From a virus, in IMG/VR virus record IMGVR_UViG_3300045988_176782, positions 103,279 through 167,278 of that record: DNA of 64,000 nt, one strand, 5' to 3'. Position numbers and translations under genes: made by a program. Position 1 is the stretch's first letter. Each line of letters begins with the position of its first letter. Positions 36,466 through 57,928 of this stretch are shown in pieces. The notes beneath the pieces are model-generated. The model was not told the origin of the DNA. It saw nothing but the letters and a program-made list of their open reading frames with translations, and did not search any database.

Positions 36466-37119
36466 ATGTCTAAACAGCAAATCCCAATCAATGACCTTTT
36501 ACAATATTTGGATGAACAAGAAGAAAATAATACTATTTCTTGTGGCTGGACAATTATTGATTATATTTATGGCCATTATAATTTATTAAGTAAAAGAAAT
36601 ATACACACTCCAACGGCCTGGATTTTTTCTAACTGGTGTTTTGGAAACCATGGAACAATTTCAGAATACACTATCTTTATGCCCGGTATGTTAGTAAGAA
36701 AGCCAGGTTTATTTGGCGTTATACACGAAGGGAAAAATCTTCATAAACGAGAACAAACTTCCAATCTTTGGGTCTATTATACAGATACAAAATTTGGAAC
36801 AATTCTTGATGTTCCTTTTTACGCGCCGGAATGGGAACAATGGGGAACAATGAGCCAGATTTATGATTATTCTATTTATAAGCCTCAAAAGAATTTTTAT
36901 ATGTTAGGTAAGCGCAAACTCTCCATTGGAGACCATGGACTGGATGTTTTAATTTTGCAAATTGCACTTTTAAATTTTGGAGAATAGGTAAAGGTAAATG
37001 ATGATTATGATTTTGCCACTAAAACCGCTATTGAAAATATTTAGAAGTGTTTTTCTTTACCTGTTAATGGTATTGTGGATATTGATGATAATTTATTATC
37101 TTACTTACATAAGGAGTAA
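36466..37119 (+). CDS. cell-wall-associated protein with C-terminal PG_binding_1 domain; two in-frame TAG (36985, 37042)
   Basis: GGAGGG RBS. C-terminus GDHGLDVLILQIALLNFGE*VKVNDDYDFATKTAIENI*KCFSLPVNGIVD matches the peptidoglycan-binding repeat (FQ column = TAG). Confidence 0.65.
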
Positions 37120-37121
37120 AT

Positions 37122-37754
37122 ATGAATATAACAGTTAAGTTATATAATGATAAAAATATTAAATTCTATGGCTCTAATCAAATTACAATAGATTTAGAGG
37201 AATATTTGGTTGGATGTGTCGCGGCAGAAATAGGAAATGCACCACTTGAAGCTTGTAAGTCTTAGGCTGTGGCAAGCAGAACTTTTGCTCTAAATGCAAT
37301 TAAAAGTAAAGGTTATATCACAGATAAAAGTTCTTCTGACCAAGCTTTCAGAAGTGAGCGTTTAACGGGTTATCCTAATGTAATTTAGGCCGTTAAAGAT
37401 ACCGAAGGAGAAGTTTTATATTACAATGATAAACTCGCTAAAGCCTATTACTCTGCTTCTAATGGCGGCTATATGATTAGTGCAAAAACACGATGGGGTG
37501 GCGACCTGCCTTATTCTGTAAGTGGCGTTGATAAATACGATGATGGTAAAGGCAATGGCCACGGAGTTTAGTTGAGTTAGATTGGCGCGAAAAATCGTGC
37601 AAAAGCCGGTTTTGAATATAAGTAGATTTTAAGTTTTTATTATCCTGGGACAAATATTCATAAAATTGAAGAACAATCATATGAAATTAAAATCCCAATA
37701 ACTTCTGAATTATATAAAAATCTCTCAACTGCTGAGGTTGAAATGAGGAGGTGA
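37122..37754 (+). CDS. SpoIID/LytB-family lytic enzyme; five in-frame TAG
   Basis: LEEYLVGCVAAEIGNAPLEACKS*AVASRTFAL (cf. EEYL.GVV..EM....EALKAQAVAARTYA), YSASNGG, GHGV*LS*IGA (cf. GHGVGMSQ.GA), YK*ILSFYYPG. Confidence 0.8.
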
Positions 37755-37762
37755 TGCCTCTT

Positions 37763-38562
37763 ATGACTACAAACGAACAAAAAATTATAAATTGGGCAGA
37801 GTCCAAAGTCGGTTGTGGTTATGTATCGTTTGGGGAGCAACAGGATATGTATTAACAAAAACGAAGTTGCAAGAGTTAATCGCTCAGTACCCTCAATATG
37901 TTTCTGAATCAAAAAATAGTAAGTATCTTGGAAAGGCTGTATATGATTGCGCGTCGCTGGTTCGTTATGCTATGAAACAAATTGGCATTTCTATGGTAAG
38001 CGGCGCAACCAGCCAATGGAAGAAAACCAAATGGGCTCGTAAAGGCACAATTGATTAGCTTCCTAAAGATTAGGTTGCTTGCCTGTATCGTTGGACAGGC
38101 TCAGTTATGCAACATACTGGCATCTATCTTGGCAATGGCTATGTAATTGACGCCCGTGGTAGTAGTGCTGGAGTTATTAAGTCTAAGCTTTCTTCTTATC
38201 CTTGGACCCACTTTGGGCAGCCGCAAGGACTAATTAAAAAAAAACAAACTAACGAGGTGATAAGCGTGAATTATCAAGCAAAAGTAGTAGCAGACAGTGG
38301 CTCAACAGTTCGTATGCGTTCTGCTCCTTCTAAAGAAGCTAGTGTTTCTGCCACCATTGCTCTTGGGGCAATTGTTGATGTTGTTGAAGAAGCAGAAGGT
38401 TGGTGCGGCATTGTATATAATGGGCAGAAAGGCTATATGATGAGCCAATTCCTTGAAAAAACTAAAAGCGAGGAGGGGTTATATTATGTCCGAATTAAAT
38501 GCGGAAGTCAAAGTGAAGCAGAACAATTAGCAAACCTCTTACGACAAGCAACAACAAACTGA
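37763..38562 (+). CDS. NlpC/P60-type endolysin with C-terminal SH3b; needs a frame change near 37826-37832; two in-frame TAG (38056, 38071)
   Basis: AGGAGG RBS and ATG 37763 give MTTNEQKIINWAESKVGCGYVSF, stopping at 37853. Frame -1 continues WGATGYV...YDCASLVRYAMKQIGI...HTGIYLGNGYVIDA and an SH3b domain (ORFs 37792-38058 and 38107-38562). Confidence 0.65.
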
Positions 38563-39301: not shown

Positions 39302-39330
39302 TTGACAAAAATAAAAATTTAATCTATAAT
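39302..39330 (+). promoter_or_regulatory. promoter TTGACA-N17-TATAAT driving the suppressor-tRNA transcript
   Basis: -35 at 39302-07, -10 at 39325-30. Confidence 0.7.
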
Positions 39331-39463
39331 ATATACAGAAAGTGAGAGAGAAATCTTTCACCAGACTGGCGATAGGAGTGGTGCTTATGAAACACGCTTT
39401 TACTCTGACTGGAGATAAAACTCCACCTCGCTATAAAGGGGAGAAGTAATTCTCCCCATACGA

Positions 39464-39553
39464 TGGCCCTTAGTTGAATGGTGACAACAGCTGACTCTAA
39501 ATCAGTAAGTGGGGTTGACCCCGCAGGTCTTGGTTCGAATCCAAGAGGGCTAA
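39464..39553 (+). tRNA. suppressor tRNA, anticodon CUA (reads UAG), class II (long variable arm), no encoded CCA
   Basis: Acceptor TGGCCCT/AGGGCTA (U1-A72, G2-U71). D stem GTTG/CAAC. Anticodon stem GCTGA/TCAGT with loop CT-CTA-AA (CTA 39497-99). 22-nt variable region with GGGG-TTGA-CCCC hairpin. T arm CTTGG-TTCGAAT-CCAAG. Discriminator A. Confidence 0.8.
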
Positions 39554-39700: not shown

Positions 39701-40537
39701 ATGGGATATATTTATAAAATTACTAATGATATTAATGGAAAAGTTTATATTGGTAAAACATTAAATACGGTTGAAGCAAGATGGAAAGAACATTGTTATG
39801 ATAAAGACCGGAGAAAAGTAGAAAATCGTCCGCTTTATTAGGCAATGAATAAATATGGTCTTCAGCATTTTTCTATTGAGACTGTAGAAGAATGTAAAAC
39901 TAATTTAGAAGAACGAGAAGTTTATTGGATTAAATATTATAATTCTTATATTGGTTGGCCAAATAGCAATGGTTATAACGCTACTTTAGGTGGAGATGGA
40001 AAACAATATATTAATTATGATATGATTCGTGAATTAGCAAATACAGAAAAAACTTAGGTTGAAATTGCTGCTATTGTTGGATGTAATGTTGATACTGTGG
40101 CAAAAGTTTATTTATAGGATAATCAAGAAAATTATAATTATAATAAACGGATTAGTATCGCTGTTTATCAGAAAGATAAAGATGGTAATATTATTGCAGA
40201 GTATCCAACAATAAAATCCGCCGCAGAAGCAACCTTAACTAGTCCAAGTCATATTGGACAATGTTGTGCTGGGAAACGAAAAACTTGTGGTGGTTATTAT
40301 TGGGAATATGTTAATACTAAAGAAGGTTAGACACGGCGAGCAATTAGTAATTAGCCTAAAGTAAATATCCCGCGTGAAATATTAAAATCATTAATAAGAG
40401 AACATCCTATGGAAGAAATTGGCCGTATATATGAATGTTCTGCAGCATCAATTAGACGATGTTGCGAACGGCTAAATCTTCCACGAACTAAAAAAGAAAT
40501 CAATTCTTATTCTGATGAAGAATGGTTTAAAATATAA
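39701..40537 (+). CDS. GIY-YIG homing endonuclease with C-terminal DNA-binding modules; five in-frame TAG
   Basis: MGYIYKITNDINGKVYIGKT...RPLY*AMNKYG...REVYWIKYYNS...GYNATLGG, then NUMOD/IENR-like CGGYYWEY and an HTH-like tail. ORF 39845-40057 is in the same frame. Confidence 0.8.
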
Positions 40538-40781: not shown

Positions 40782-40810
40782 TTGACAAAAATAAAAAATT
40801 AAATTATAAT
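40782..40810 (+). promoter_or_regulatory. promoter TTGACA-N17-TATAAT driving a non-coding transcript
   Basis: -35 at 40782-87, -10 at 40805-10. Confidence 0.7.
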
Positions 40811-41442: not shown

Positions 41443-41607
41443 ATGTATAGTAGTAGAAGATTCTTTAGTGAAGATGCTTGGGTTGATTTTAATGAATGGC
41501 TTAGGGATTTTCACGGTGAAATTGTAAATGTAAGTCATACAACGGTTCCGATTGGAAGATTTGATTTCTGGATGGATATTGTGGTGGTTTATAAAAATTT
41601 GACATAA
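41443..41607 (+). CDS. small hypothetical protein (54 aa)
   Basis: AAAGGAG RBS; ends inside the next promoter. Confidence 0.4.
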   Translation: MYSSRRFFSEDAWVDFNEWLRDFHGEIVNVSHTTVPIGRFDFWMDIVVVYKNLT

Positions 41608-41626
41608 AAAATAATTACGATATAAT
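41599..41626 (+). promoter_or_regulatory. promoter TTGACA-N16-TATAAT
   Basis: -35 at 41599-604, -10 at 41621-26. Confidence 0.6.
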
Positions 41627-41655: not shown

Positions 41656-41781
41656 ATGGAATGGATTTTAGGAATAGGTTGTTTGGCTTTTTTGTTTGTG
41701 TTGTATAAGCCGAATATTGAAAGAATGATTTACAGCATTAAAGATTGGATTGAGAAAGGAAATAAAGAAAATGACATTTGA
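41656..41781 (+). CDS. small membrane protein (41 aa)
   Basis: AAGGAAG RBS; MEWILGIGCLAFLFVLY. Confidence 0.4.
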   Translation: MEWILGIGCLAFLFVLYKPNIERMIYSIKDWIEKGNKENDI

Positions 41782-42220
41782 AACACTCCAGCAAGAAATG
41801 TATTCTGCTATGAAGTCCGGAGATAAATTTCGTAAAGAAGTTATTTCTGGTCTTATTGCTGACATTAAGCGCGTAGCTATTGATAAAAATTGTCGTGATA
41901 ATATTACTGAAGAAGTCGTAAATACAGTTCTTCTAAAAAGTCGTAAGATGGCACAAGAAATGATTGATACTTGTCCTGAATCTCGTCTTGACCTTCTTGA
42001 ACAATATAAACAAAACGCCGTAATTATGGACGAGTATGTTCCTAAGCTTATTACAGACACAAACGAAATTGCAGCGATTATTAGTCAACTTTTAGTTAAG
42101 TTTAATGTTGAACCTGTCAAAGCTAATATGGGTAAGATTATGAAACTTTGTAAGGAAAACCTTAATGGCAAAGTTGATATGAAAATTGTAAGTAATATTG
42201 TAAAATCTATTTTAGTCTAA
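41771..42220 (+). CDS. GatB/YqeY-domain protein
   Basis: MTFETLQQEMYSAMKSGDKFRKEVISGLIADIKR...ITEEVVNTVLLKS.K...E is the typical YqeY layout. Confidence 0.65.
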   Translation: MTFETLQQEMYSAMKSGDKFRKEVISGLIADIKRVAIDKNCRDNITEEVVNTVLLKSRKMAQEMIDTCPESRLDLLEQYKQNAVIMDEYVPKLITDTNEIAAIISQLLVKFNVEPVKANMGKIMKLCKENLNGKVDMKIVSNIVKSILV

Positions 42221-42236: not shown

Positions 42237-43565
42237 ATGTCTGAACATGTAGGTTATGTTGTAAAAATTAATTCATTGCGGCCTCATTCTAATGCTGACC
42301 GTCTTCAAATTGCTACTATTTTTGACTCTAATGTTATTGTTAGTCTTGATACCCATCTTGATGACATTGGCGTGTATTTTCCTTCTGATATTCAGCTCTC
42401 TAAGGAATTTTGTAAAGTAAATGACCTTGTTCGTCGTAAAGATGAAAATGGCAATCCTGCAGGTGGCTATCTTGACCCAAATAAGCGTAATATTCGTCCG
42501 TTGAAGTTGCGCGGTGAAAAAAGTGATGGTCTATATCTGCCCATTACTTGTATGATGGAGTTCTGTCCTATTTCTGACCTTAAGGTTGGCGACACTATTG
42601 GTGTTGTAAATGGGCACGAAATTTGTAAGAAGTATATTCCCCATCGCACGAAGGCATACCATTATACTGAAAAAGTAAGGAAGCAAAAGGTTAATTTTGC
42701 TCCTACCTTTTTTGAGCATTGCGATACCGCTCAACTTGCATACAACCTTGAAGCTTTCCGTGCAGGAGATGTTGTAGAGCTAACTCTTAAAATGCACGGG
42801 ACCAGTGCGAGAATGGGCTATCTGCCTTTGCTGCAACCTCGGACTTTGCTAGATAAAATTCTTCGTCGCACTCGCAAAACTTATGGAAATGTTATTGGCA
42901 CTCGCCGCGTTGTATTGGATGAAACTCATACTGGTGGTTTTTATGAGGACAATGCTTTCCGACGCCATATTGCTAAAAAGGTTGAAGGAAAACTCCATCG
43001 TGGAGAAACTATTTATGGAGAAATTGTAGGCTTTCAAGGTCCCAATGGCGCGCCTATTATGTCTTCTGTGAAAAACTCTAAAATTTCCGATAAAGCATTC
43101 ACGAAGCAATATGGTGAAGAAACTGTATTCTCTTATGATTGTAATGCTGCGAATGGTTATGAAGATGAACATCCTTGTTGTGAATTATATGTTTATCGTA
43201 TGACTATGGTAAATGATGACGGCGATGTGGTAGATTACTCTCCTGCGCAAATCCGTTATCGTTGTGAGCAAATGGGAGTTAAAGTTGTTCCTCAATTTGA
43301 AGTATTCGTAATTCCTCAAGATGAACCCCATCCTGGTGAATATGTAGTACGTAAAGTTGAAGAATACTATGACGGTCCTGACCCTATTGGTAAAACCCAT
43401 GTACGCGAAGGCGTTGTTGCTCGTATTTTGAATCGGAATAATTTTGCGGTTTATAAAATGAAGAATTGGAACTTCAAATGCCTTGAGGGTATTGTTAAGG
43501 ATGAAGCGGCAGAACCAGATATGGAAGAAGCGCAAGAAGAACTAGTGGAGGAGCAAACTGAATGA
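42237..43565 (+). CDS. RNA ligase with N-terminal OB/tRNA-binding-like domain (Rnl5-like architecture)
   Basis: N-terminus VVKINSLRPHSNADRLQIATI (tRNA_bind-like). Nucleotidyl-transferase motif I LKMHGTS (KxHG). Confidence 0.65.
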   Translation: MSEHVGYVVKINSLRPHSNADRLQIATIFDSNVIVSLDTHLDDIGVYFPSDIQLSKEFCKVNDLVRRKDENGNPAGGYLDPNKRNIRPLKLRGEKSDGLYLPITCMMEFCPISDLKVGDTIGVVNGHEICKKYIPHRTKAYHYTEKVRKQKVNFAPTFFEHCDTAQLAYNLEAFRAGDVVELTLKMHGTSARMGYLPLLQPRTLLDKILRRTRKTYGNVIGTRRVVLDETHTGGFYEDNAFRRHIAKKVEGKLHRGETIYGEIVGFQGPNGAPIMSSVKNSKISDKAFTKQYGEETVFSYDCNAANGYEDEHPCCELYVYRMTMVNDDGDVVDYSPAQIRYRCEQMGVKVVPQFEVFVIPQDEPHPGEYVVRKVEEYYDGPDPIGKTHVREGVVARILNRNNFAVYKMKNWNFKCLEGIVKDEAAEPDMEEAQEELVEEQTE

Positions 43566-45901: not shown

Positions 45902-46022
45902 GTGGGGTTAGTGTAATGGCAGCACGTTGGTTATAAGTGAGTCTTGGCAAAGAGTCATCAGCAATTATTCTTTCTTGCAGGGAGCCCGAAGGACAGGGTT
46001 CAATTCCCTTGACCCTACACCA
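45902..46022 (+). ncRNA. tRNA-like gene with oversized anticodon/variable region (about 121 nt), encoded CCA
   Basis: Acceptor GTGGGGT/ACCCTAC plus A plus CCA. U8, D arm GTGT-AATGGCA-GCAC. T-arm-like CAGGG-TTCAATTC-CCTTG. About 45 extra nt between the D and T arms; anticodon not assignable. Confidence 0.4.
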
Positions 46023-47950: not shown

Positions 47951-48024
47951 AGGCGAATAAGATAATGGTAGTCCCGCGCTCTCCAAAAGCGTTCGTCCCT
48001 GTTCAAATCGGGGTTCGCCTGCCA
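47951..48024 (+). tRNA. tRNA-Trp (CCA anticodon), CCA end encoded
   Basis: Acceptor AGGCGAA/TTCGCCT. Anticodon stem GCGCT/AGCGT, loop CT-CCA-AA. T arm CCCTG-TTCAAAT-CGGGG. Confidence 0.75.
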
Positions 48025-48029
48025 AAATA

Positions 48030-48108
48030 AAGACGCATACAGCTAATATTTTGGTTAAAAAGTTTTCTACAAAAAAGCTTAAGAGATTCAATTTCTCAAT
48101 GCGTCTTG
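48030..48108 (+). repeat. AAGAC..GTCTT element copy (E4)
   Basis: AAGACGC-ATACAGCTAAT...GCGTCTT-G-TTTTT. Confidence 0.6.
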
Positions 48109-48115
48109 TTTTTAT

Positions 48116-48190
48116 GGCTCGTTAGCCTAGTGGTTTAGGCAGTAGACTGTTAATCTACCTAGGCTGGTTCAATTCCAGCACGAGCCTCCA
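48116..48190 (+). tRNA. tRNA-Asn (GTT)
   Basis: Acceptor GGCTCGT/ACGAGCC. D arm GCCT..AGGC. Loop CT-GTT-AA. T arm GCTGG-TTCAATT-CCAGC. CCA encoded. Confidence 0.85.
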
Positions 48191-48412
48191 TTAATTCAAT
48201 AATACGCGTGAGGCCGCGGTGCATATTGGCAAGAACAAGTATCATGAACTCAGCGCCCGAAGGAGAGGTAAATATCGGTTAACTACCGAGGCGCACCTAT
48301 GTGATGAATTGGACCCTTTCAAGTTGAAAGACACCTACGAGGGAGACGACGGAATAATTGGCCGCCTTTAAACGCTTGTCCATGAAAATGGCACTATTAT
48401 TGAATATTTAAA
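48191..48412 (+). ncRNA. structured RNA of about 220 nt closed by an 11-bp helix
   Basis: ATTCAATAATA (48194-204) pairs with TATTATTGAAT (48395-405). The interior is visibly GC-richer than the genome, with several complementary segments. No ORF. Confidence 0.45.
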
Positions 48413-48624
48413 AAACTCTGTCCTCAACGTGGATCGGAAAGTAATTTGCCTATTATTATAGGTAAGTCCACGACCTGATAATAGGTAAATTATGAAGTTT
48501 GTAACAGTGTTCTTCAAAATAACTTCTGAACAGCGGCATAAGAGCCACGCCAGAGGAGCGGATTGGTGTGAAAGATAGAGAGTTGCAATTATCTATTTAT
48601 TCACAGGCCATAAAGAAGTTATAT

Positions 48625-48740
48625 GCCAAGGTAGCTTAATTGGTAGAGCAATAGAGTAAAAAGGAATCTTGTAAAAGATTTTGGCCGCGATTGTTTATAT
48701 TTGGGTCTGTGTGTTCTCGGTTCAAGTCCGAGCCTTGGCT
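48625..48740 (+). ncRNA. tRNA-like gene with a 43-nt insertion in the anticodon loop
   Basis: Canonical acceptor GCCAAGG/CCTTGGC, D arm GCTT-AATTGGTA-GAGC, anticodon stem ATAGA/TCTGT, 5-nt variable region and T arm CTCGG-TTCAAGT-CCGAG. The loop is 50 nt and contains the hairpin AATCTT-GTAA-AAGATT. The 3' loop part ATTTGGG would give anticodon TTG. Confidence 0.45.
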
Positions 48741-48747
48741 TTACCAT

Positions 48748-48824
48748 TGCGGAGTAGAGAAGTGGTTTATCTCGTCAGCCTCATGAGCTGAAAAACGGAG
48801 GTTCAAATCCTCCCTCCGCAACCA
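48748..48824 (+). tRNA. tRNA with CAT anticodon (Met or Ile2)
   Basis: Acceptor TGCGGAG/CTCCGCA. Stem TCAGC/GCTGA, loop CT-CAT-GA. T arm GGAGG-TTCAAAT-CCTCC. CCA encoded. Confidence 0.8.
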
Positions 48825-48892
48825 ATAGAACTTTGAAAAACTTTATCCTTTGCCAAGTTTACCATAAAGAGGGTTTAAAGGCGAGGTCATGA

Positions 48893-48967
48893 TGCTCAAT
48901 AGCTTAACGGTAGAGCAGCGATTTCATAAGTCGTTAGATATAGGTTCAAATCCTATTTGAGCAACCA
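48893..48967 (+). tRNA. second tRNA with CAT anticodon (Met/fMet/Ile2)
   Basis: Acceptor TGCTCAA/TTGAGCA. D arm GCTT..GAGC. Loop TT-CAT-AA. T arm ATAGG-TTCAAAT-CCTAT. CCA encoded. Confidence 0.8.
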
Positions 48968-49093
48968 AGCGCTACACAGATTCCCACTAAACTACCACTG
49001 GCGTCTCAGACCCAATAGGAGAGCGGCGATATGTAGCTTGCGGAAGCGCTATATAAGAAGCGAAGTAAGTGGTGGGCGGTTTACCGCCCGATA

Positions 49094-49167
49094 TGCGGGT
49101 GTAGCTCAATGGTAGAATTCTAGCCTTCCAAGCTGGTTACGTGGGTTCGATTCCCATTACTCGCTCC
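49094..49167 (+). tRNA. tRNA-Gly (TCC)
   Basis: Acceptor GCGGGTG/TACTCGC. Stem CTAGC/GCTGG, loop CT-TCC-AA. T arm GTGGG-TTCGATT-CCCAT. CCA encoded. Confidence 0.8.
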
Positions 49168-49431
49168 AATTGATTTCAAGTAGAACAAGTTAGCTTCTTG
49201 TGAAAGAAATCTGCGCTATGACTACGGAAGACAGCGAGTCAGGGTTTGTAGAATTTTCCATACAATTCTACCGTGAACCAGTTCAATTACTGTTGCTCTG
49301 CTCTGCGACTGCGTGAAGGTCGGTTAAAAAGGTGAAGCGGGTTATTACTGCTTCCAAGAGGAGTAAGCGGGAGATGGGCGCAAAGTCTGCGGTGAGTCTA
49401 AATCCGTGCTAGCAAAATAGACCAATATTAT
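49168..49431 (+). ncRNA. structured inter-tRNA spacer (264 nt)
   Basis: No ORF. Perfect hairpins GTAGAATT..AATTCTAC and GATTTC..GAAATC. GC-richer than the flanks. Confidence 0.35.
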
Positions 49432-49506
49432 GGCTCCGTAGTCAAGCGGTTAAGACGCTGGGTTTTCATCCCAGAGACGCGAGTTCGACTCTCGCCGGAG
49501 CTACCA
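49432..49506 (+). tRNA. tRNA-Glu (TTC)
   Basis: Acceptor GGCTCCG/CGGAGCT. Stem CTGGG/CCCAG, loop TT-TTC-AT. T arm GCGAG-TTCGACT-CTCGC. CCA encoded. Confidence 0.8.
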
Positions 49507-49511
49507 TAGTA

Positions 49512-49611
49512 AAGACACAGGTTAAACAGCAATACTTATAGTGGTTAATAAAATTTTTGTTGTATAAAATTTTTAATGGGTTCAAATCCCACAAAAGAAC
49601 CCTGCGTCTTG
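49512..49611 (+). repeat. AAGAC..GTCTT element copy with inserted T-arm-like remnant (E5)
   Basis: AAGACAC...AACAGCAATAC...TGGGTTCAAATCCCA...GCGTCTT-G-TTTTTT. Confidence 0.5.
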
Positions 49612-49617
49612 TTTTTT

Positions 49618-49708
49618 GGAAAGGTGGCTGAGTTGGTTTAAAGTGACAGATTGCTAATCTGTTGAGGGATTTTCCCCTCCGGAGGTTCAAATCCTCTCCT
49701 TTCCGCCA
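49618..49708 (+). tRNA. tRNA-Ser (GCT), class II
   Basis: Acceptor GGAAAGG/CCTTTCC. Stem ACAGA/TCTGT, loop TT-GCT-AA. Long variable arm. T arm GGAGG-TTCAAAT-CCTCT. CCA encoded. Confidence 0.85.
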
Positions 49709-49711
49709 TAT

Positions 49712-49790
49712 GTGCGCGAGTAACCGAATTGGCATAGGTACTGGTCTAAGAAGCCAGGTTTTATGAGTTTAAGTCTCACCTTGCACACCA
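49712..49790 (+). tRNA. atypical tRNA, anticodon AAG (Leu codon CUU) but short variable region
   Basis: Stem CTGGT/GCCAG, loop CT-AAG-AA. Acceptor GTGCGCG/CTTGCAC has one mismatch. Irregular D arm. CCA encoded. Confidence 0.45.
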
Positions 49791-49793
49791 TTT

Positions 49794-49853
49794 AAGATAC
49801 TAATAACGATTATTATTTTCTTTACAGTTTTTAAAGAACAAGAATGTGTCTTG
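49794..49853 (+). repeat. AAGAC..GTCTT element, divergent copy (E6)
   Basis: AAGATAC...GTGTCTT-G. Confidence 0.4.
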
Positions 49854-49858
49854 ATTAT

Positions 49859-49933
49859 GGGGCAGTGACGCAATGGTAGCGTGTTAGCTTTGCAAGCTGA
49901 AAGTTGAGGGTTCAAATCCCTTCTGCTCCACCA
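49859..49933 (+). tRNA. tRNA-Ala (TGC)
   Basis: Acceptor GGGGCAG/CTGCTCC. D arm ACGC..GCGT. Loop TT-TGC-AA. T arm GAGGG-TTCAAAT-CCCTT. CCA encoded. Confidence 0.85.
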
Positions 49934-50053
49934 GACGTGCCAGTTTCTCCGATGGCCGTATAACTTAGAAATAAGTGAAGCAGAAAGTAGCTATTTTGCA
50001 TCGGAAAGCAAGTCTCCTTATTCCTTGCCATACATAAAAGAATAAGGACGCGT

Positions 50054-50130
50054 GCGCTGATAGCCCAATTGGCAGAGGCAATAGACTTAGGATCTATTCA
50101 GTGAGAGTTCAAATCTCTCTTGGCGTACCA
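50054..50130 (+). tRNA. tRNA with TAG anticodon (Leu CUA/CUG) but class I short variable region
   Basis: Acceptor GCGCTGA/TTGGCGT (3 wobbles). Stem ATAGA/TCTAT, loop CT-TAG-GA. T arm GAGAG-TTCAAAT-CTCTC. A73, CCA encoded. Confidence 0.6.
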
Positions 50131-50133
50131 TTT

Positions 50134-50198
50134 AAGACAGTTACAGCAAATCCTCAAAAGATGCGATTGTTAAAATTACGTTATTATTTACTGTCTTG
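50134..50198 (+). repeat. AAGAC..GTCTT element copy (E7)
   Basis: AAGACAG-TTACAGCAAAT...CTGTCTT-G. Confidence 0.6.
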
Positions 50199-50204
50199 CT
50201 ATTT

Positions 50205-50268
50205 CGGGATATAGTGCGATGTGCTGATAACATGCAAGTCGCGGATTCAAATCCCGCCCCTGTAACCA
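50205..50268 (+). ncRNA. truncated tRNA-like element (CUGAUAA loop, T arm, ..ACCA tail)
   Basis: Loop CT-GAT-AA at 50224-30. T-arm-like GCGGA-TTCAAAT-CCCGC. No convincing 5' acceptor strand or D arm. Alternative long hairpin CGGGAT...ATCCCG. Confidence 0.3.
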
Positions 50269-50269
50269 T

Positions 50270-50345
50270 CGGGGAATACGTCAATTGGCAGACGGCTTGC
50301 TTTGGGAGCAAGCAGCTCTCAGTTCAAATCTGAGTTCTCCGACCA
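50270..50345 (+). tRNA. tRNA-Pro (TGG)
   Basis: Acceptor CGGGGAA/TTCTCCG. D arm CGTC..GACG. Stem CTTGC/GCAAG, loop TT-TGG-GA. T arm CTCAG-TTCAAAT-CTGAG. CCA encoded. Confidence 0.85.
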
Positions 50346-50398
50346 GAGGAATTTATAATCCTTTTTCATAACAAATGGGAGAATTTCTCCCATCTCCT

Positions 50399-50468
50399 TG
50401 GCCGCAAGTAGAGAAATGTTATCTCACCGTTTTAACGGAGTAGGCGGTTCAATTCCGCCCTCGGCCAT
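50399..50468 (+). ncRNA. aberrant tRNA-like element with a 6-nt TTTTAA anticodon-type loop
   Basis: Good T arm GGCGG-TTCAATT-CCGCC and 6-bp acceptor TGGCCG/CGGCCA. The anticodon-type stem CACCG/CGGAG (one mismatch) encloses only TTTTAA, and the variable region is too short. Confidence 0.3.
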
Positions 50469-50598
50469 TAGTCGCCCTGGCACAGGGAGAAATGTGTTGC
50501 TCGGTAGGAGGGCATCCGCGGAGAATATACTATCCTACACAAAACAAAATGGGACTGATGCAGGTCCCACTTATAAGGGGAAGTTCCCCTTTTAATAT

Positions 50599-50684
50599 GG
50601 AGGAGTGGCGGAATGACGAGACGCAGTTGACTCAAAATCAACCACGAAGAAACACTGAGAGTTCAAATCTCTTCTCCTCTACCA
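50599..50684 (+). tRNA. tRNA-Leu (CAA), class II
   Basis: Acceptor GGAGGAG/CTCCTCT. Stem GTTGA/TCAAC, loop CT-CAA-AA. Long variable arm. T arm GAGAG-TTCAAAT-CTCTT. A73, CCA encoded. Confidence 0.85.
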
Positions 50685-50690
50685 GGCCTT

Positions 50691-50765
50691 AAGACAGATC
50701 AGCAATTTATTTAGATGAATGCATTTTTCACCTCCAAGGTAGGCTCTTGGTTGTATCCTGTCTTG
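50691..50765 (+). repeat. AAGAC..GTCTT element copy (E8)
   Basis: AAGACAG-ATCAGCAATTT...CTGTCTT-G-TTTTT. Confidence 0.55.
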
Positions 50766-50793
50766 TTTTTATTTCATATGAAAGGAACTAATT

Positions 50794-51033
50794 ATGATTA
50801 GAGCAAATATTGAATTAATTACTGCTACTGACATGCGAAGTTTTATTTCTTGTGTTAATAGCGATGGCACCGCAGACAAGTATACTCTTGAGAATTTTGA
50901 TGGCAGTTATCGTGCTGATGCACGTTCTATGTTAGGTGTTGCCTACGCGACCGCGGAATTTGATAGTTTATTTCTTGTTAATAGAATTCATGATGGTGTT
51001 TTTCCAAAAGGTATTGATAAATTTCGTAAGTGA
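50794..51033 (+). CDS. hypothetical protein
   Basis: Intact ORF with RBS. Confidence 0.5.
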   Translation: MIRANIELITATDMRSFISCVNSDGTADKYTLENFDGSYRADARSMLGVAYATAEFDSLFLVNRIHDGVFPKGIDKFRK

Positions 51034-51065
51034 AGTCGTAATGTAATATTACGACTTTATTTTTT
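51034..51065 (+). terminator. intrinsic terminator
   Basis: AGTCGTAAT/ATTACGACT hairpin plus a T-run. Confidence 0.75.
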
Positions 51066-51092
51066 GACAAAAGTAAATTTTTCTTTTATAAT
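51064..51092 (+). promoter_or_regulatory. promoter TTGACA-N17-TATAAT
   Basis: -35 at 51064-69, -10 at 51087-92. Confidence 0.7.
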
Positions 51093-51113
51093 AAAAGAAA
51101 AGGAGATAAAAAC

Positions 51114-51386
51114 ATGATAAAAAGTGTGCCTATTAAATATGAAGAAAGTATTGAAGTGCAACGTTTATTTCATAAGTATAATGCATTGCTTGCAGTTTTG
51201 GCTTATATGAATGATAATAGTTCTAAATATACAGATTTTTTAGATAAAAAAGTGAATGAAGCTACCGAGTTATATATTGAATTAGAACAAGCAAAAGATA
51301 AATATGGCATGCGATATAAGCCACAAGGTGATTGGCAACATTATACTTTTGACTTTGATAATAATGTTATTATATATGAGGATTAA
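51114..51386 (+). CDS. small accessory protein of the CXXX-repeat modification locus
   Basis: AAGGAG RBS; 90 aa; directly precedes the rSAM maturase (TAAATG junction). Confidence 0.5.
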   Translation: MIKSVPIKYEESIEVQRLFHKYNALLAVLAYMNDNSSKYTDFLDKKVNEATELYIELEQAKDKYGMRYKPQGDWQHYTFDFDNNVIIYED

Positions 51387-52691
51387 ATGAAAAAGTCTTA
51401 TTTAGATTTAATTGCAACTTTATATTCAGAACCTGATTTACGAAGTTGTAGAAACATTACCTTATAGGTTTGCGATGATTGCTGTTTAAAATGTTCATAT
51501 TGCTATCAAATTCATAAAAGCCACAATTATATGACAAAAGAGACTGCAAAAGCCATTATTGATTTACTATTTAGAATGTATGATGAAGATAAGCCAGACG
51601 CATTTATCAATCATACAACTCATGGTATAATTCTTGATTTTATCGGTGGCGAGCCTCTAATGAACGTTGAAATTATGGAATTTGCTACTGAATACTTTAT
51701 TGACCAATGTTTGCAAAAAAATCACGAGTGGCTTTATAATTTTCGCACAAGTTTTGCAACAAATGGTATTCTTTATTTTGAACCAAAAGTATAGGCATAT
51801 TTACAAAAATTTCACAATTTTATTTCTATGACCGTTAGTATTGATGGCCCAAAAGAAATTCATGATATTTGCCGTCTTGACCGTGATGGTAATGGTAGTT
51901 TTGAACGAGCAAGTACCGCGGCGCACCATTATTGGGAATATTATGGAAAAGATGTCGGGGGACGAGATGAAACTAAAGTTACCATTGCTCCAGACAATTT
52001 ATCTCAATTAAATAAAATTGTAGATTATTTCTTAAATGAAGGCGTTACAGTGATTAATGCCAATCCAGTTTATGAAGTAGAATGGACAGTAGAATAGGCA
52101 AAAATATATTATAATGAATTAAAAAAATTAGCAAATAAATTGTTATTAAATTTAGAAATTAAATGTAGTATTTTTGATAGCCATTAGAACGTCCCCTTGC
52201 CTATTAGTGATAATACGAACTGGTGCGGCGGTGATGGACATATGTTAGCTTTTGACCCGCACGGAAATGCTTATCCTTGTTTGAGATATATGGAAAGCTC
52301 TTTAGGTGGAGAAGTTGAGCCTTTAATTATTGGTGATACTAATGGTATTTATAATACGCCAGAAAGTCAAGAAATTAGGTGTAAACTTTGTACATTAACT
52401 CGTAGTAATTAGTCTACGGAAGAATGTACGCATTGTTCAATCGCCGCGGGCTGCTCTTGGTGCAGTGCTTGGAATTATCAGCAATTTAAAAAGATCGGTA
52501 AGCGTAGCACGAATATTTGTTGGATGCACCGAGCCGCAGCATTGGCCAATGTCTATTATTGGAATCTTAAATACCGTTTAGAAGAAAATGAAAAAAGATT
52601 CCCAATTTATCTTGAACAAAAATATGCTTTGTAGATAATACCCTCTGAAGAATATGATTTGTTGCTTTCACTTTCTCAATGGGGAGAGTGA
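51387..52691 (+). CDS. radical SAM/SPASM peptide maturase (CXXX-repeat-target type candidate); six in-frame TAG
   Basis: ORFs 51531-51794, 51828-52097 and 52197-52412 are all in the frame of ATG 51387. ITL*VCDDCCLKCSYCYQ (CxxxCxxC). C-terminal CGGDG...PCLRY...CTHCSIAAGCSWCSAWN is SPASM-like. Confidence 0.75.
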
Positions 52692-52696
52692 TATTT

Positions 52697-53239
52697 ATGA
52701 GCTGGCTAAAAGGAGATAAAATTACAGCAGAGGATTTCATTGCTATTAAAGAAAAAGTTAAAAACGAATTAGCTCGGCGAAATGCAGAAGGAAGTGTAGC
52801 AAACTATGCAACGAGCTATACTGATATGCCTGTATAGAAAGGGAAAATAAAAGTTAGCCATATTACAGAAATTGTTGAACCATTGAGTCATATTAATAAT
52901 GTAGATTATGATTTAAATAAACCAATTACAATAAAATCTTTAACTACAATTCAAACAATGTTAAATAGTTTAACCACAGCAGAAAAGGCTGCATCAACAT
53001 TAGAAGCAACCGGGTGTAAAGCTTCCTGCACTGGTTTATGTTATACATCTTGTTCAGAAACGTGTCGTTCTTGTGGAGATAGTTGCAGTCAAAATTGTGA
53101 TACTGGATGCAATTGGACTTGTAAAGGGTCATGCCGCAATACTTGTTCTGGACGCTGCAAAGGTAGCTGTGGAACTACTTGCCAATTGGGCTGTTCTAAC
53201 AATTGCAAAGGAAGCAGTGTAGGTGGCTGTTCTGCATAA
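52697..53239 (+). CDS. CXXX-repeat protein: tail-fibre-like N-domain plus C-terminal run of 18 Cys; one in-frame TAG (52835)
   Basis: MSWLKGDKITAEDFIAIKEKVKNEL N-terminus. C-terminus CKASCTGLCYTSCSETCRSCGDSCSQNCDTGCNWTCKGSCRNTCSGRCKGSCGTTCQLGCSNNC (15 of 17 spacings are exactly CxxxC). Confidence 0.7.
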
Positions 53240-53476
53240 AATATACAGTAAATTAAATAAATATTAAGTGCTATAATGATCGAACAAAAATTTATTCCTT
53301 TAATAATTCAATATAATATATTCAATATATTAAATACTAAATTGCTTGTATTATTAGATTTGATTTTCCTAACCACAAAACCGTTGCTTTAGAATCTATT
53401 ATAAAATAAGGCATAGAATAATTTCCTAATTTTAACCTAAAACAAATTTAATCTAGGAGCTTCGTTGCTCCTACTT

Positions 53477-53550
53477 GCCGAAATAGCATAATGGTAGTGC
53501 AAGGCTCTTGTAAAGCTTAGATTTCAGTTCAATTCTGAATTTCGGCTCCA
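53477..53550 (+). tRNA. tRNA-Thr (TGT)
   Basis: Acceptor GCCGAAA/TTTCGGC. D arm GCAT..GTGC. Stem AGGCT/AGCTT, loop CT-TGT-AA. T arm TTCAG-TTCAATT-CTGAA. CCA encoded. Confidence 0.85.
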
Positions 53551-55616: not shown

Positions 55617-57911
55617 ATGAGTGGAGGATTTTCTGGCGTTGGCGGCTATGCTGTTATTCTAACTCCAGAAGGCGCATCGCTATATGGCGGCGGAAATGCA
55701 AGTTTTGAAGCACTTGTCACTGCTGCAACAGGCCAAATAGATATTGAGGCAACAACATAGGAAATTCTTGCTATTTTATATTAGCAATATGAAGAACAAA
55801 CAATAATAGAAAGGAATATACGGGCAGCTTATGGCAATGAAACTATTGAAAATATTATAAAATCCTTACGCGGAGAAACTTCTAAAGTAATGAGCGGCAC
55901 ACCAGAAATGATACAAAATCTTAAGCAAAATTTGGCCGACTGGCAGAACAAAGAAAAGAGTCGTAAAGAAACAATCGCCCAAATTCGTGGAGATTCTGAA
56001 CATTATTATCAAGTTTATAATACTTTAGTAGACGGATTAGTTGCCTTAGCTAATCAATTAACTAATATGGATGAAAAAGCATTACGAACTGGTCCTGGTA
56101 TCATTGAAACATTAATTCATAAATGGGAAAATTCTTCCAGTCAATTAGAGCAAGAAGCCGCGAAAATGGCGCAATCTTTTTCCAAATTAGATTTAGATAA
56201 TGAATCATTTATTAAAGATATGAATAGTACCTTTGACAAAATTAGAGAGACAATTAACAAAGAAGACATGGCCTATTCTTATGACCCTACTTCTAATACC
56301 ACTGAACTTAAAAATCCAGAATTAACCGCGGCTATTTAGGAATTACTTGCCTTTCAAGAAAAAATCCGCAGTGATATAGATAAAAAAAGTAAACGCAGTA
56401 AAAAGAAAAAACAAAGACTTCTTGCTATGTGGAATAATATTAAATTTGCCAATTGGAATGCAAGAACCAGTAAACTTGGTCAGGCATTAAATCAAAAAGG
56501 TAAAAACGACCCAATGATAATTTTAAATAGTTTAAGGCAAAAAGTCTATGATGTGGCTAAATAGCAATTAGAGGAAAACACTGGACGAAAAGCCACAGAT
56601 AAAGAGCAACAAAAACTTCGTTCTTCAATTACAGAAATTCAAACTAAAGCTGTCAATGAGCTAAGTGAACAAACTAAAGACTATGCAGTACGGCAACTTA
56701 TTTCACTTGTATTTGGCGACCAAGCACAAATTGGTCCATTAAAAGGACTACTTGCCGAGCAATTTAAAACTGCAATGGCTAAATCCTATATACAAGATGT
56801 AAATAATTCAGTTCAGCAAGCCTATCAATAGGCCATTGGTGCAGTATGGGAAGAAATTATAACAAAGCTTTGGCTAACAGGGAAAGATACAAGAAATGTA
56901 AAAATATTAGTACCAGGCCCTGAAGACCTTAAAGACATAGTATAGTCTGATGATGATTTAAGAATAGGAACAGATATTAATGCTTTTGATAATGAAAATA
57001 AACGGTATGGCACGCAACATCGTTTAAAGCGAACGAATGAAGAAATTTTTAAAGGCTATCAAAAAAATAAGAATAAAAAAGATGCCCTTAGCGTTTCATA
57101 GCGCGAACTCAAAACTTGGTTAAAGTCAATTAGCGGGAAAAAAGATTTACCAAACTTACAAGCAAGTTTAGACAACTATTTTAATGAAAATATTATTGAC
57201 CTCCCTTCTATTCAAAAACAATTTGATAAAGTAGATAGTGTTCAAGCGGCGACAGTGGGAAAGAATCCATATTACATTGCTTTCTCAGAAAAGCAACGTA
57301 CTGCAGGTGGTATGACTGGTTCTATTGGTTTAATGGGCGATGATATTAGCAGATTTAATAATATGAAAGCTTCTGGAACTAATTTATATAGTTCTTTAGA
57401 TTTAATTAGTTAGAATGGTTCAGACAAATCTATTCCTACTGCACAAATAATGTTCGCAATGCTGAATCAATCTACTGCTTCTATATATCATGGTGATGCT
57501 GGTGTTCAGGAGTAGATAAGAAATTATATTAAAATGCAACTTGCGGCAAAAGTATTAGATTTGGCATTTAATAGAGTAAATTTTTTCTTCAATCAGCAAC
57601 AAAAAGGTATTGATATGAATCAAAAAAATACTCTATTTGTTATGAATGTTAATAATCTTTATGTCTCTTCCACGGCCATATTACGCGGCCTTATTGAAAA
57701 ATTTCAAAATTATCAAGACGTAATTGCTGACATCGTTTATGTTAATGTAGAATTTGATACTGCCCACCAAGCTTATCCCCTATGGATGACCGCGATTGCA
57801 AGTCAAGGTGGCGGCGATGCAAATCAAGCAGCCCGTTGGGGATTTGTTGCTAATCAAGTTGCTGCTAATACTAAATTGAATGTTTCTCTCAGCATTGCAA
57901 ATTTAATGTAG
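55617..57911 (+). CDS. large (764 aa) virion-type protein, nine in-frame TAG
   Basis: ATG 55617; ORFs 55890-56339 and 57534-57911 are in the same frame, and the frame stays open throughout if TAG is read as sense. Confidence 0.6.
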
Positions 57912-57928
57912 TTATTTGATTTTTAAAT

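Follow-up and report, generated by a model that had tools for sequence, protein, structure and literature searches.

The window analysed here is a stretch of 64,000 nucleotides (nt) of viral DNA, positions 103,279 to 167,278 of IMG/VR record IMGVR_UViG_3300045988_176782. It is phage-like (GC content 35.8%, genes nearly all on the + strand) and encodes a transfer RNA (tRNA) with the anticodon CUA and an extra hairpin in its variable region. This tRNA(CUA) is the phage's own amber suppressor, which reads in-frame TAG codons through a canonical CUA arm. In the explanation regarded as best, and as moderately probable, the suppressor inserts glutamine (Gln), and its extra arm would be a natural pseudo-anticodon that recruits or satisfies the host's Gln-charging enzyme. 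It is further proposed, with about an even chance of being right, that phage suppressors display the anticodon of the inserted amino acid in the variable arm: CUG or UUG (Gln) on suppressors of UAG, and CCA (tryptophan, Trp) on suppressors of UGA. Unmodified host glutaminyl- and tryptophanyl-tRNA synthetases (GlnRS and TrpRS) would then read the arm instead of, or besides, the anticodon. The window tRNA is a recoding suppressor with an apparently undescribed identity-like element.

The tRNA was called by ARAGORN with anticodon CTA (Table 1), and the program's label 'Pyl' derives from that anticodon only. It matches the Rfam model RF00005 at 58.9 bits (gathering score 29), and its minimum free energy (MFE) fold is exactly the cloverleaf, at −33.2 kcal/mol (z = −2.67). 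An earlier note on this DNA had described a clean cloverleaf whose CTCTAAA loop gives the anticodon CUA. ARAGORN, Rfam and the MFE fold bear this out, the covariance model accepting the fold and ARAGORN agreeing on the anticodon. The acceptor stem UGGCCCU/AGGGCUA, read from the sequence, gives the pairs U1-A72, G2.U71 and G3-C70. U8 and A9 lie between it and the D stem GUUG/CAAC, which has 4 base pairs (bp), includes G13-C22 and closes an 8-nt loop, AAUGGUGA. The anticodon stem is GCUGA/UCAGU (5 bp), the T arm is CUUGG-UUCGAAU-CCAAG, the discriminator is A73 at position 39553, and CCA is not encoded. The variable region of 22 nt (39507..39528) reads AA, GUGGGG-UUGA-CCCCGC, AGGU. The long variable region with a GGGG/CCCC hairpin and the A73 reported in the earlier note are thus both present when the sequence is read and folded; what that note overlooked is that the extra hairpin's UUGA loop consists of a Gln anticodon and a following A37.

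The tRNA recurs, identical in sequence, on L255, an independent metagenome contig of 167 kb, and the window tRNA is therefore not an assembly artefact. Identity as tRNA-Pyl was ruled out: the variable region has 22 nt (3 in tRNA-Pyl), the D loop 8 nt (5), the anticodon stem 5 bp (6) and the linker between acceptor and D stems two bases (one). Also ruled out was an allo-tRNA, which folds 8/4 or 9/3 (PMC5389517), as the window tRNA folds 7/5.

In this gut phage of roughly 165 kb, in-frame TAG is restricted to some genes of the window, namely tail and fibre genes, the lysis cassette (36466..38562), a GIY-YIG endonuclease gene, a radical-SAM maturase gene and the gene of a protein of 769 amino acids (aa). 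The meaning of TAG was examined at 21 TAG columns in three proteins, the maturase, a SpoIID-like lysis protein and the 769-aa protein. In six of these columns Gln (Q) is found in 73-100% of homologues, and in five it reaches at least 97% with no lysine (Lys, K). None of the 21 is dominated by leucine (Leu), serine (Ser) or tyrosine (Tyr). Among 120 maturase homologues, columns 27, 136 and 342 hold Q in 119-120, column 416 has Q as the commonest residue (54 Q vs 40 K), column 237 has glutamate (E) in 86 and Q in 21, and column 267 is variable. Among 81 distant homologues of the SpoIID-like protein, Q occupies the column of TAG48 in 80 and that of TAG153 in 79, and is the commonest residue at TAG89 (27 of 81); the column of TAG168 holds E or aspartate, then Q. 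For the 769-aa protein, a TAG-free segment of 131 aa retrieved 15 distant homologues, of which 11 have Q at TAG765 and five at TAG241, where it is again the commonest residue. Most of the ten TAG columns of this protein are variable and polar, and uninformative.

The codons of a related phage, L001, were compared with the window's TAG codons: opposite them stand TAG (6), CAA (4) and CAG (2), and nothing else. The maturases of the two phages are 78% identical, and all six TAG codons of the window's gene are CAA or CAG in L001. The 'Q' recorded in near relatives' SpoIID proteins does not count as independent evidence because it comes from code-15 gene calls; read under the standard code, these genes do not give the deposited protein. 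The assignment of TAG to Gln in the window phage, which the earlier note had drawn from protein motif columns, is well supported by these columns and codons. Like code-15 phages, the window phage has TAG in a subset of its genes, aligned with Gln, and encodes a suppressor tRNA.

Viral contigs were scanned for relatives of the tRNA with the pattern CTCTAAA, 22-36 bases, GGTTCRAATCC, which leaves the arm sequence unconstrained, and at least 119 loci were obtained. The counts given here for groups A and B, for tRNA(UCA) and for arms of unconstrained length are counts among the matches listed in these viral scans. In the loci, together with L001 and L002, ARAGORN found 69 tRNA(CUA), 58 of them 84-97 nt long. 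Group A comprises 34 unique extra-arm tRNA(CUA), including those of the window and L001, with a class-I-like core (4-bp D stem, 7-8-nt loop AAYGGnnA) and the extra hairpin placed between positions 45 and 46. Group B comprises 16 unique tRNA(CUA) with canonical Ser/Leu-like bodies.

A covariance model, R1, was built from 30 group A sequences, leaving out the window tRNA, that of L001 and the three nearest relatives. The window tRNA scores 71.1 bits against it (E 1.4e-17). The next best tRNA of the window scores 48.8 bits, and its Leu(CAA), Ser(GCU) and Leu(UAG) tRNAs score 40.6, 27.8 and 23.7 bits. The other members score 66.6-101.5 bits, the lowest being L282:4..89, which lies at the end of its locus. 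The window tRNA, with its canonical CUA arm and an extra hairpin carrying YUGA (Y, pyrimidine) in the loop, is a member of a widespread phage suppressor family with a class-I-like core. In the R1 alignment of 38 members, pair 1-72 is U-A in 15, A-U in two, G.U in one, G-C in one and unpaired in 19, and 34 members have G-C at pair 2-71. Most members have the discriminator G73, and about nine, including the window tRNA, have A73. Such an acceptor signature is one to which GlnRS is attracted.

Among species-representative genomes, the family was found solely on contigs of metagenome-assembled genomes, several of them phage-sized, and in no isolate genome. These contigs, mostly labelled Bacillota (Acutalibacteraceae, Oscillospiraceae, Erysipelotrichaceae, plus one 'Mollicutes'), are likely to be mis-binned phage. 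The exact pattern of the window's anticodon and extra arm had no match in viral contigs, and megablast of 19 kb against GenBank phages gave none; relatives were reached via proteins, and are contigs of ~165-173 kb, several from human gut samples.

Within group A, the loop of the extra arm is the conserved element. YUG occurs in all 34 variable regions and YUGA in 32, in 31 of the 34 within the predicted hairpin loop. When the arms were shuffled, YUGA occurred in 5.3 on average and in 15 at most, and 0 of 1000 shuffles reached 32. Aligned on YUG, the loop is composed as follows: position 32, C in 17 and U in 14; position 33, U in 26; position 34, C in 29 and U in five; position 35, U in all 34; position 36, G in all 34; position 37, A in 32; position 38, A in 17 and G in 12. 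The family consensus is C/U-U-C-U-G-A-A/G and the commonest loops are ctctgaa and ttctgag; ctctgaa, ctttgaa, ctctgac and ttttgat are also the anticodon loops of true tRNA-Gln in the same loci. The triplets that flank the loop are complementary in at least seven different versions, and 91% of the stem is paired, each of its three pairs showing double changes, in an alignment fitted to R1. A loop motif conserved on a covarying stem is evidently under selection.

As a reciprocal control, the same scan was run with the opal-suppressor loop CTTCAAA. It yielded 20 unique extra-arm tRNA(UCA), 19 with UCCAA in the variable region and none with YUGA. In 19 of the 20, CCA lies in the hairpin loop, often as CUCCAAA, the anticodon loop of tRNA-Trp, on a 5-bp stem, and their acceptors are mostly Trp-like (AGGGGCU...AGCCCCU-G-CCA). 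UCCAA was found in none of the 34 group A tRNAs, nor in group B (n=16) or in the Ser (n=44), Leu (n=36) and Tyr (n=18) tRNAs, and YUGA was found in three of each of these last four sets. The CUA and UCA families have common D- and T-arm sequences, and the anticodon, arm loop and acceptor end have therefore been switched together. The loop thus co-varies with the stop codon that is suppressed, a Gln loop accompanying UAG suppressors and a Trp loop UGA suppressors. Among long-arm ochre tRNA(UUA), of which seven canonical-looking examples were found, no common loop motif was seen, which matches literature reporting only TAG-to-Gln and TGA-to-Trp changes in phages recoded relative to their hosts.

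The mirror reading of these molecules, in which the YUG hairpin would be the real anticodon arm and the CUA hairpin an insert, was ruled out. The CUA arm stands at the canonical one-base distance from the D stem and keeps a 7-nt loop on ~5 bp, the dimensions of the YUG arm range from 3 to 6 bp (stem) and from 4 to 9 nt (loop), and phages of the family do use in-frame TAG.

Other long-arm tRNAs were noticed in the scanned loci. Those at L021:11871..11961, L060:6213..6296 and L088:2915..3005 have the Trp anticodon CCA on a Ser-like body with a large D loop, and their variable region has GUUGAAC, a Gln-anticodon-like word. Group B members such as L003:2386..2472, L044:1461..1544 and L059:7318..7407 are Ser/Leu-like tRNA(CUA) without a YUGA loop. 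The one in L003 directly adjoins a similar tRNA-Ser(UGA), and group B tRNAs could insert Ser rather than Gln at TAG.

Gln identity for GlnRS resides in U35, G36, the 10-25 pair and the acceptor stem including the discriminator, and without G36 the kcat/Km of GlnRS falls by orders of magnitude (PMC9976931). The true anticodon of the window tRNA has U35 but A36; the only place in the molecule with U35-G36-A37 is the UUGA loop of the extra arm. Measured against the Escherichia coli rules (PMC9976931), the window tRNA has the weak first pair U1-A72, G3-C70 and G10-C25. The earlier note was right that U1-A72 bears on Gln identity. The combination of U35, G3-C70 and a weak first pair leads to charging with Gln, and a long variable arm is no obstacle; amber tRNA-Trp is charged with Gln, and changing pairs 1-72 and 3-70 turns an amber tRNA-Ser, of class II, into an acceptor of Gln (PMC9976931).

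From these elements we infer that Gln is attached by a Gln-charging enzyme of the host, which would be GlnRS or, in hosts that lack GlnRS, a glutamyl-tRNA synthetase (GluRS) of the non-discriminating kind followed by GatCAB. The true anticodon CUA lacks the G36 that such an enzyme needs. The extra arm would offer a cognate pseudo-anticodon to the enzyme's anticodon-binding domain and so compensate for A36, while the weak 1-72 pair would suit the acceptor end to the enzyme; one tRNA could then be charged as Gln yet decode UAG. Two routes are conceivable. In one, the anticodon-binding domain would dock on the extra arm; in the other, the tandem hairpins would exchange stacking on the D stem, and the AGGU on the 3′ side of the arm is as long as an ordinary variable loop. 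CUG loops occur in 29 of the 34 family members, which suggests GlnRS rather than a non-discriminating GluRS, since Bacillus GluRS reportedly accepts the UUG isoacceptor only. Among the options that the earlier note had left open, an unusual scaffold charged as Gln is the one favoured by the TAG columns, the family and the UUGA loop.

Several points weigh against this reading. The window tRNA departs from the E. coli Gln set in having A73 instead of G73 and G2.U71 instead of G2-C71. Its arm loop has 4 nt on a 6-bp stem rather than the family's 7-nt N-U-Y-U-G-A-R on a 3-5-bp stem, and with its A73, G2.U71 and short loop it is an atypical member of the family. Its nearest relatives also have no 7-nt anticodon-like register (CUGACA in L102, GCUGA in L018 and, in L056, UUGAAGC, a 7-nt loop that begins with UUGA). 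When arm length was left unconstrained, the scan returned 66 unique tRNA(CUA), of which 52 are class I, 12 have a YUGA arm and two another long arm, so that the design is common and not obligatory. The counts for the family span sequences related by descent, which are not independent events. In the crystal structure of the GlnRS:tRNA complex the enzyme approaches the tRNA opposite the variable region, and one monomeric GlnRS would have to hold both the CCA end and the extra-arm loop. GlnRS was present in 10 of 28 Firmicutes surveyed (PMC3927822), and the host may lack it.

The column of TAG150 in the SpoIID-like protein, which is glycine (Gly) in 80 of 81 distant homologues, also counts against a pure Gln reading. 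This TAG, at 37569..37571, falls in the GHGV-G column, where relatives at 60-85% identity have Gly (six) or Q (three). Either Gln would be tolerated at this position, or decoding may not be purely Gln.

The arm might have another purpose on a suppressor that does insert Gln: it might be a decoy or shield against the host's anticodon nucleases, offer a handle to a modification enzyme or to a phage protein, for instance the neighbouring YqeY, or titrate host GlnRS. This is considered unlikely, although the selection on the loop motif might not concern aminoacylation and most phage tRNA(CUA) function without an arm. A homologue of YqeY and an RNA ligase are encoded 2-3 kb downstream of the suppressor in conserved synteny, and the YqeY-like tail of GatB docks near the variable loop of tRNA-Gln (PMC2811023). 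Set against this, the loop tracks the reassigned amino acid, as a determinant for an aminoacyl-tRNA synthetase predicts, and a generic shield or handle needs no such correspondence. Moreover, YqeY is absent from the other family loci sampled, and the YqeY domain of Deinococcus GlnRS, which raises tRNA-Gln binding, works only in cis (PMC1865053).

Still less probable is that the arm is a neutral relic of a duplicated tRNA-Gln or tRNA-Trp anticodon arm, charging needing no more than U35 plus the acceptor end, the situation of E. coli supE and su+7. The arm does resemble the anticodon stem-loop of the matching isoacceptor, as a tandem duplication would give, and CUA with a weak 1-72 pair draws GlnRS without any extra arm (PMC9976931). 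A relic would not, however, explain why the loop is fixed while the stems differ and covary, or why the motif is kept on three unrelated scaffolds in the same genomic slot (see below). The coordinated switch of anticodon, arm loop and acceptor end between UCA and CUA families with a common scaffold, and the persistence of the arm in about one-fifth of sampled phage tRNA(CUA), also stand against it.

A derivation from class II tRNAs is very improbable. On this account the suppressor would be a true Leu-, Ser- or Tyr-type tRNA, charged by LeuRS, SerRS or TyrRS, and TAG would mean one of these amino acids at least in part. The earlier note had taken the long variable region and A73 as hallmarks of such tRNAs, in conflict with Gln. 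The variable arm is indeed long (more than 10 nt) and helical, at 22 nt with a 6-bp stem, its hairpin is stable, and A73 is present; as is established, SerRS and LeuRS do not need the anticodon, and Ser-like tRNA(CUA) exist in other phages (group B, in L003 and L059), sometimes beside tRNA-Ser. The hallmark claim nevertheless fails on the rest of the molecule. With 4 bp in its stem and 8 nt in its loop, the D arm resembles that of class I and not that of class II (3 bp, 9-11 nt); in the phage loci, most Ser and Leu tRNAs have a D stem of 3 bp, and the median D loops of the Ser, Leu and Tyr tRNAs are 10-11 nt. The arm is followed by four unpaired bases (AGGU), where the loci's Ser and Leu tRNAs have one or two, and U1-A72 takes the place of the class II first pair G1-C72. 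The R1 scores likewise separate the window tRNA from the phage's own Leu(CAA), Ser(GCU) and Leu(UAG) tRNAs, and not one of the 21 TAG columns is dominated by L, S or Y.

Nearest-neighbour isotyping, run on the whole core and then on the acceptor, D and T arms, left the window tRNA without a clear isotype and enriched Gln only about 3-fold for the family, followed by Lys and Trp. It was used solely to exclude Leu, Ser and Tyr, which are absent among the nearest neighbours of the window's acceptor, D and T arms; these are the class I tRNAs for threonine, isoleucine, Lys and asparagine, at ~0.7 identity. The resemblance of the anticodon loop to that of the phage's tRNA-Leu(CAA) (CTCAAAA, 50599..50684), which the earlier note had remarked on, is a true single-base difference, but is uninformative because the remainder of the two molecules is dissimilar. 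In sum, the tRNA is not supported as a class II tRNA of the Leu, Ser or Tyr type.

Equally remote is charging by LysRS, which reads U35 and A73, both present here, so that TAG would mean Lys, alone or mixed with Gln: the nearest neighbours of the core include Lys tRNAs and K is second commonest at some variable TAG columns (as at maturase 416), but the five columns with at least 97% Q contain no K, the arm loop has UUG rather than UUU or CUU, and the non-TAG codons of L001 opposite the window's TAG are CAA or CAG only. Many E. coli amber suppressors, those of the Normanly/Abelson series, reportedly insert Lys.

The reading of the extra arm as a Gln pseudo-anticodon may be set beside known systems. 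The tRNA(CUA) suppressors of code-15 gut phages (Borges et al., 10.1101/2021.08.26.457843; Peters et al., PMC9523058) resemble that of the window in lying beside the lysis cassette, in serving a subset of genes (lysis, structural) whose TAG codons align with Gln, and in the presumption of charging by the host. Those papers give the suppressors by anticodon only, and the window tRNA adds the extra-arm loop with a Gln anticodon. The survey of recoded phages (10.1101/2021.08.26.457843) observed only TAG-to-Gln and TGA-to-Trp and left the mechanism of charging open. In a 2025 preprint that screened 213 phage suppressor tRNAs, phage tRNA(CUA) were substrates of E. coli GlnRS, and the arm was not mentioned.

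E. coli supE, su+7 (tRNA-Trp with CUA) and the altered tRNA-Ser share with the window tRNA a CUA anticodon (U35), a weak first pair and G3-C70. These GlnRS-charged suppressors are mutant cellular tRNAs without an anticodon-like arm, whereas the window tRNA has A73, G2.U71 and the UUGA hairpin. Canonical Leu, Ser and Tyr tRNAs have, like the window tRNA, a fifth helix between the anticodon and T arms, and A73 is a further likeness; in the window tRNA and its family, by contrast, the arm loop has a conserved sequence and the first pair is a weak one.

The closest parallel in design is an engineered allo-tRNA, in which a pseudo-anticodon in the variable arm raised aminoacylation and specificity in vivo (Mukai 2020, PMC7590224). 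As in the window tRNA, the variable arm of a CUA suppressor is tipped with a copy of an anticodon stem-loop. That allo-tRNA is synthetic, folds 9/3 and has histidine identity, and it depended for the most part on a HisRS to which a second anticodon-binding domain had been fused; the tRNAs of the phages are natural, fold 7/5, carry Gln or Trp loops and would need unmodified host enzymes. Anticodon-like hairpins read by a synthetase are also known from the thrS operator, viral tRNA-like structures and synthetase-binding elements in messenger RNAs (PMC9976931). Such mimics are regulatory or replicative RNAs, whereas that of the window lies inside a decoding tRNA with a different working anticodon. 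No natural pseudo-anticodon in a variable arm was found in the full-text literature searched, which included few subscription journals, and only the engineered one was met with there.

Phage suppressor tRNAs and TAG-to-Gln recoding were known already. What is new is a rule that links the anticodon of the suppressor to an anticodon copy in its arm: among arm-bearing suppressors, the Gln copy is present in 32 of 34 that read UAG and the Trp copy in 19 of 20 that read UGA, with no case of the opposite copy. If host enzymes do read the arm, this would explain how phages impose TAG-to-Gln and TGA-to-Trp on hosts with the standard code, by uncoupling identity from decoding. The rule offers a concrete, directly testable mechanism and makes the inserted amino acid predictable from the tRNA alone. 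For annotators, it means that phage 'class II' suppressors of this kind are not Leu, Ser or Tyr tRNAs. Code engineers would gain natural scaffolds that separate identity from decoding, so far achieved only by design (PMC7590224). Should the arm have another role, it is still a conserved, unexplained element in about one-fifth of the phage amber suppressors sampled.

Table 1. Features of the suppressor tRNA, its locus and its client genes (window coordinates unless a locus is named).
Feature	Coordinates	Strand	Basis or remarks
Amber suppressor tRNA(CUA), 90 nt, 7/5 cloverleaf, G10, A73	39464..39553	+	ARAGORN, Rfam, MFE fold, R1
Anticodon CUA	39497..39499	+	Sequence, ARAGORN, fold
Anticodon loop CUCUAAA	39495..39501	+	5-bp stem, 1 base after D stem
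Extra-arm hairpin, stem GUGGGG/CCCCGC (6 bp), loop UUGA	39509..39524	+	Fold; family alignment; stem covariation
UUG (Gln anticodon) followed by A37; proposed pseudo-anticodon	39515..39517 (UUGA 39515..39518)	+	Aligns with family YUGA
Extra-arm flanks AA and AGGU	39507..39508, 39525..39528	+	Sequence, fold
Sigma-70-type promoter TTGACA-17-TATAAT, 12/12	39302..39330	+	Promoter scan (predicted)
Small open reading frame, 20 codons, MKHAFTLTGDKTPPRYKGEK, AGGAG ribosome-binding site	39387..39449		Between promoter and tRNA
GIY-YIG endonuclease gene, five TAG	39701..40537		Right after tRNA; window and L255
abiF RNA motif, 49.9 bits	40562..40598		Just upstream of ROOL
ROOL RNA, RF03087, 295.8 bits	40831..41406		Own 12/12 sigma-70-type promoter, 40782..40810
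YqeY-like protein gene, free-standing, TAG-free	41750..42220	+	PF09424, 87.8 bits; PDB matches 8xjg, 1ng6
RNA ligase gene	42237..43565		Downstream of YqeY-like gene
SpoIID-like lysis gene, 5 in-frame TAG, suppressor client	37122..37754	+	Pfam PF08486, 53.8 bits
Radical-SAM peptide maturase gene, 6 in-frame TAG, suppressor client	51387..52691	+	Homologue columns; L001 codons
Gene of 769-aa protein, 10 in-frame TAG, suppressor client	55617..57926	+	Homologue columns
Third-scaffold tRNA(CUA)	L126:8500..8589, L127:10117..10206, L129:11018..11105, L256:7793..7880		

The promoter just upstream of the tRNA, a consensus one of the host type, recurs in relatives. The leader downstream of the suppressor promoter is kept in L255-L263, L129, L001 and L122, and among relatives its identity is 96-100%, except in the most distant, L126 (87%). 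Within it, the small open reading frame (ORF) ends inside a hairpin, GGGGAGAAGTAATTCTCCCC, that precedes the tRNA, and its peptide is kept in L126 and L127 (MKHTFTLNGDATPPSDFEGEKK; MKYNTNLNGDNTPPDVFKEGR). The order SpoIID, NlpC/P60, suppressor slot, ROOL, YqeY is kept in relatives, with the RNA ligase next in several, and the arrangement of abiF and ROOL downstream of the suppressor is kept in L122.

The slot itself is occupied by tRNAs of different types. The window type is found in the window and L255. The L001 type has A1.C72, G73 and the arm loop UUCUGCG; a group I intron interrupts it after CUCU, in the anticodon loop, in L122 and L123 (L122:10043..10275; RF00028, 45.9 bits, just under the gathering score of 50). 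With the GIY-YIG homing-endonuclease gene in one case and the intron in the other, the slot is one that attracts mobile elements. A third scaffold is present in L126, L127, L129 and L256-L263, and ARAGORN misses most of its copies. Its D stem of 5 bp closes a CGGC tetraloop, its anticodon stem has 6 bp and its T stem 4 bp, the T loop being non-standard, and its extra-arm loop is AUUGAAC or UCUGAAC; in L126, L127, L129 and L256 it may fold 8/4, with a mismatched first pair and G73 or A73 plus CCA. All three scaffolds keep CUA, a weak first pair and a Gln-anticodon loop YUG(A) in the extra arm.

The YqeY-like gene has its own 12/12 promoter (41599..41626), and its product is a homologue of the GatB tail and of the appendix of Deinococcus GlnRS. 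Synteny of YqeY with the suppressor slot was seen in every relative examined, among them L001, L122, L123, L126, L127, L129, L130 and L255. The gene is confined to the window's clade, and its absence from the other family loci sampled rules it out as a general partner of the family. Homology suggests that the YqeY-like protein is possibly an accessory of Gln charging, and it is conceivable that YqeY and the RNA ligase take part in charging or repairing the suppressor tRNA.

An array of 12-14 tRNA genes, called by ARAGORN and Rfam, lies at 47951..53550. Two Leu-anticodon tRNAs, at 50054..50130 in the window (UAG) and L001:9413..9489 (CAA), are 77 nt long with a 4-nt variable loop; these class-I-shaped Leu tRNAs are the opposite oddity to the suppressor. 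The array also contains two tRNA-like elements that ARAGORN does not call, one of 116 nt with an internal insertion at 48625..48740 (Rfam 48.0 bits) and one of 74 nt at 49714..49787 (Rfam 39.5 bits). Another element without an ARAGORN call, of 118 nt at 45902..46019, has a D arm like that of group A and, following a UUAUAA loop, an insertion of ~45 nt, and scores 27.2 bits against R1.

The maturase gene adjoins an ORF at 52679..53239 whose C-terminal half consists of CxxxC repeats, and both contain in-frame TAG. One maturase homologue carries the Joint Genome Institute (JGI) name 'CXXX-repeat target family', and the maturase and the CxxxC ORF form an apparent phage-encoded modified-peptide system.

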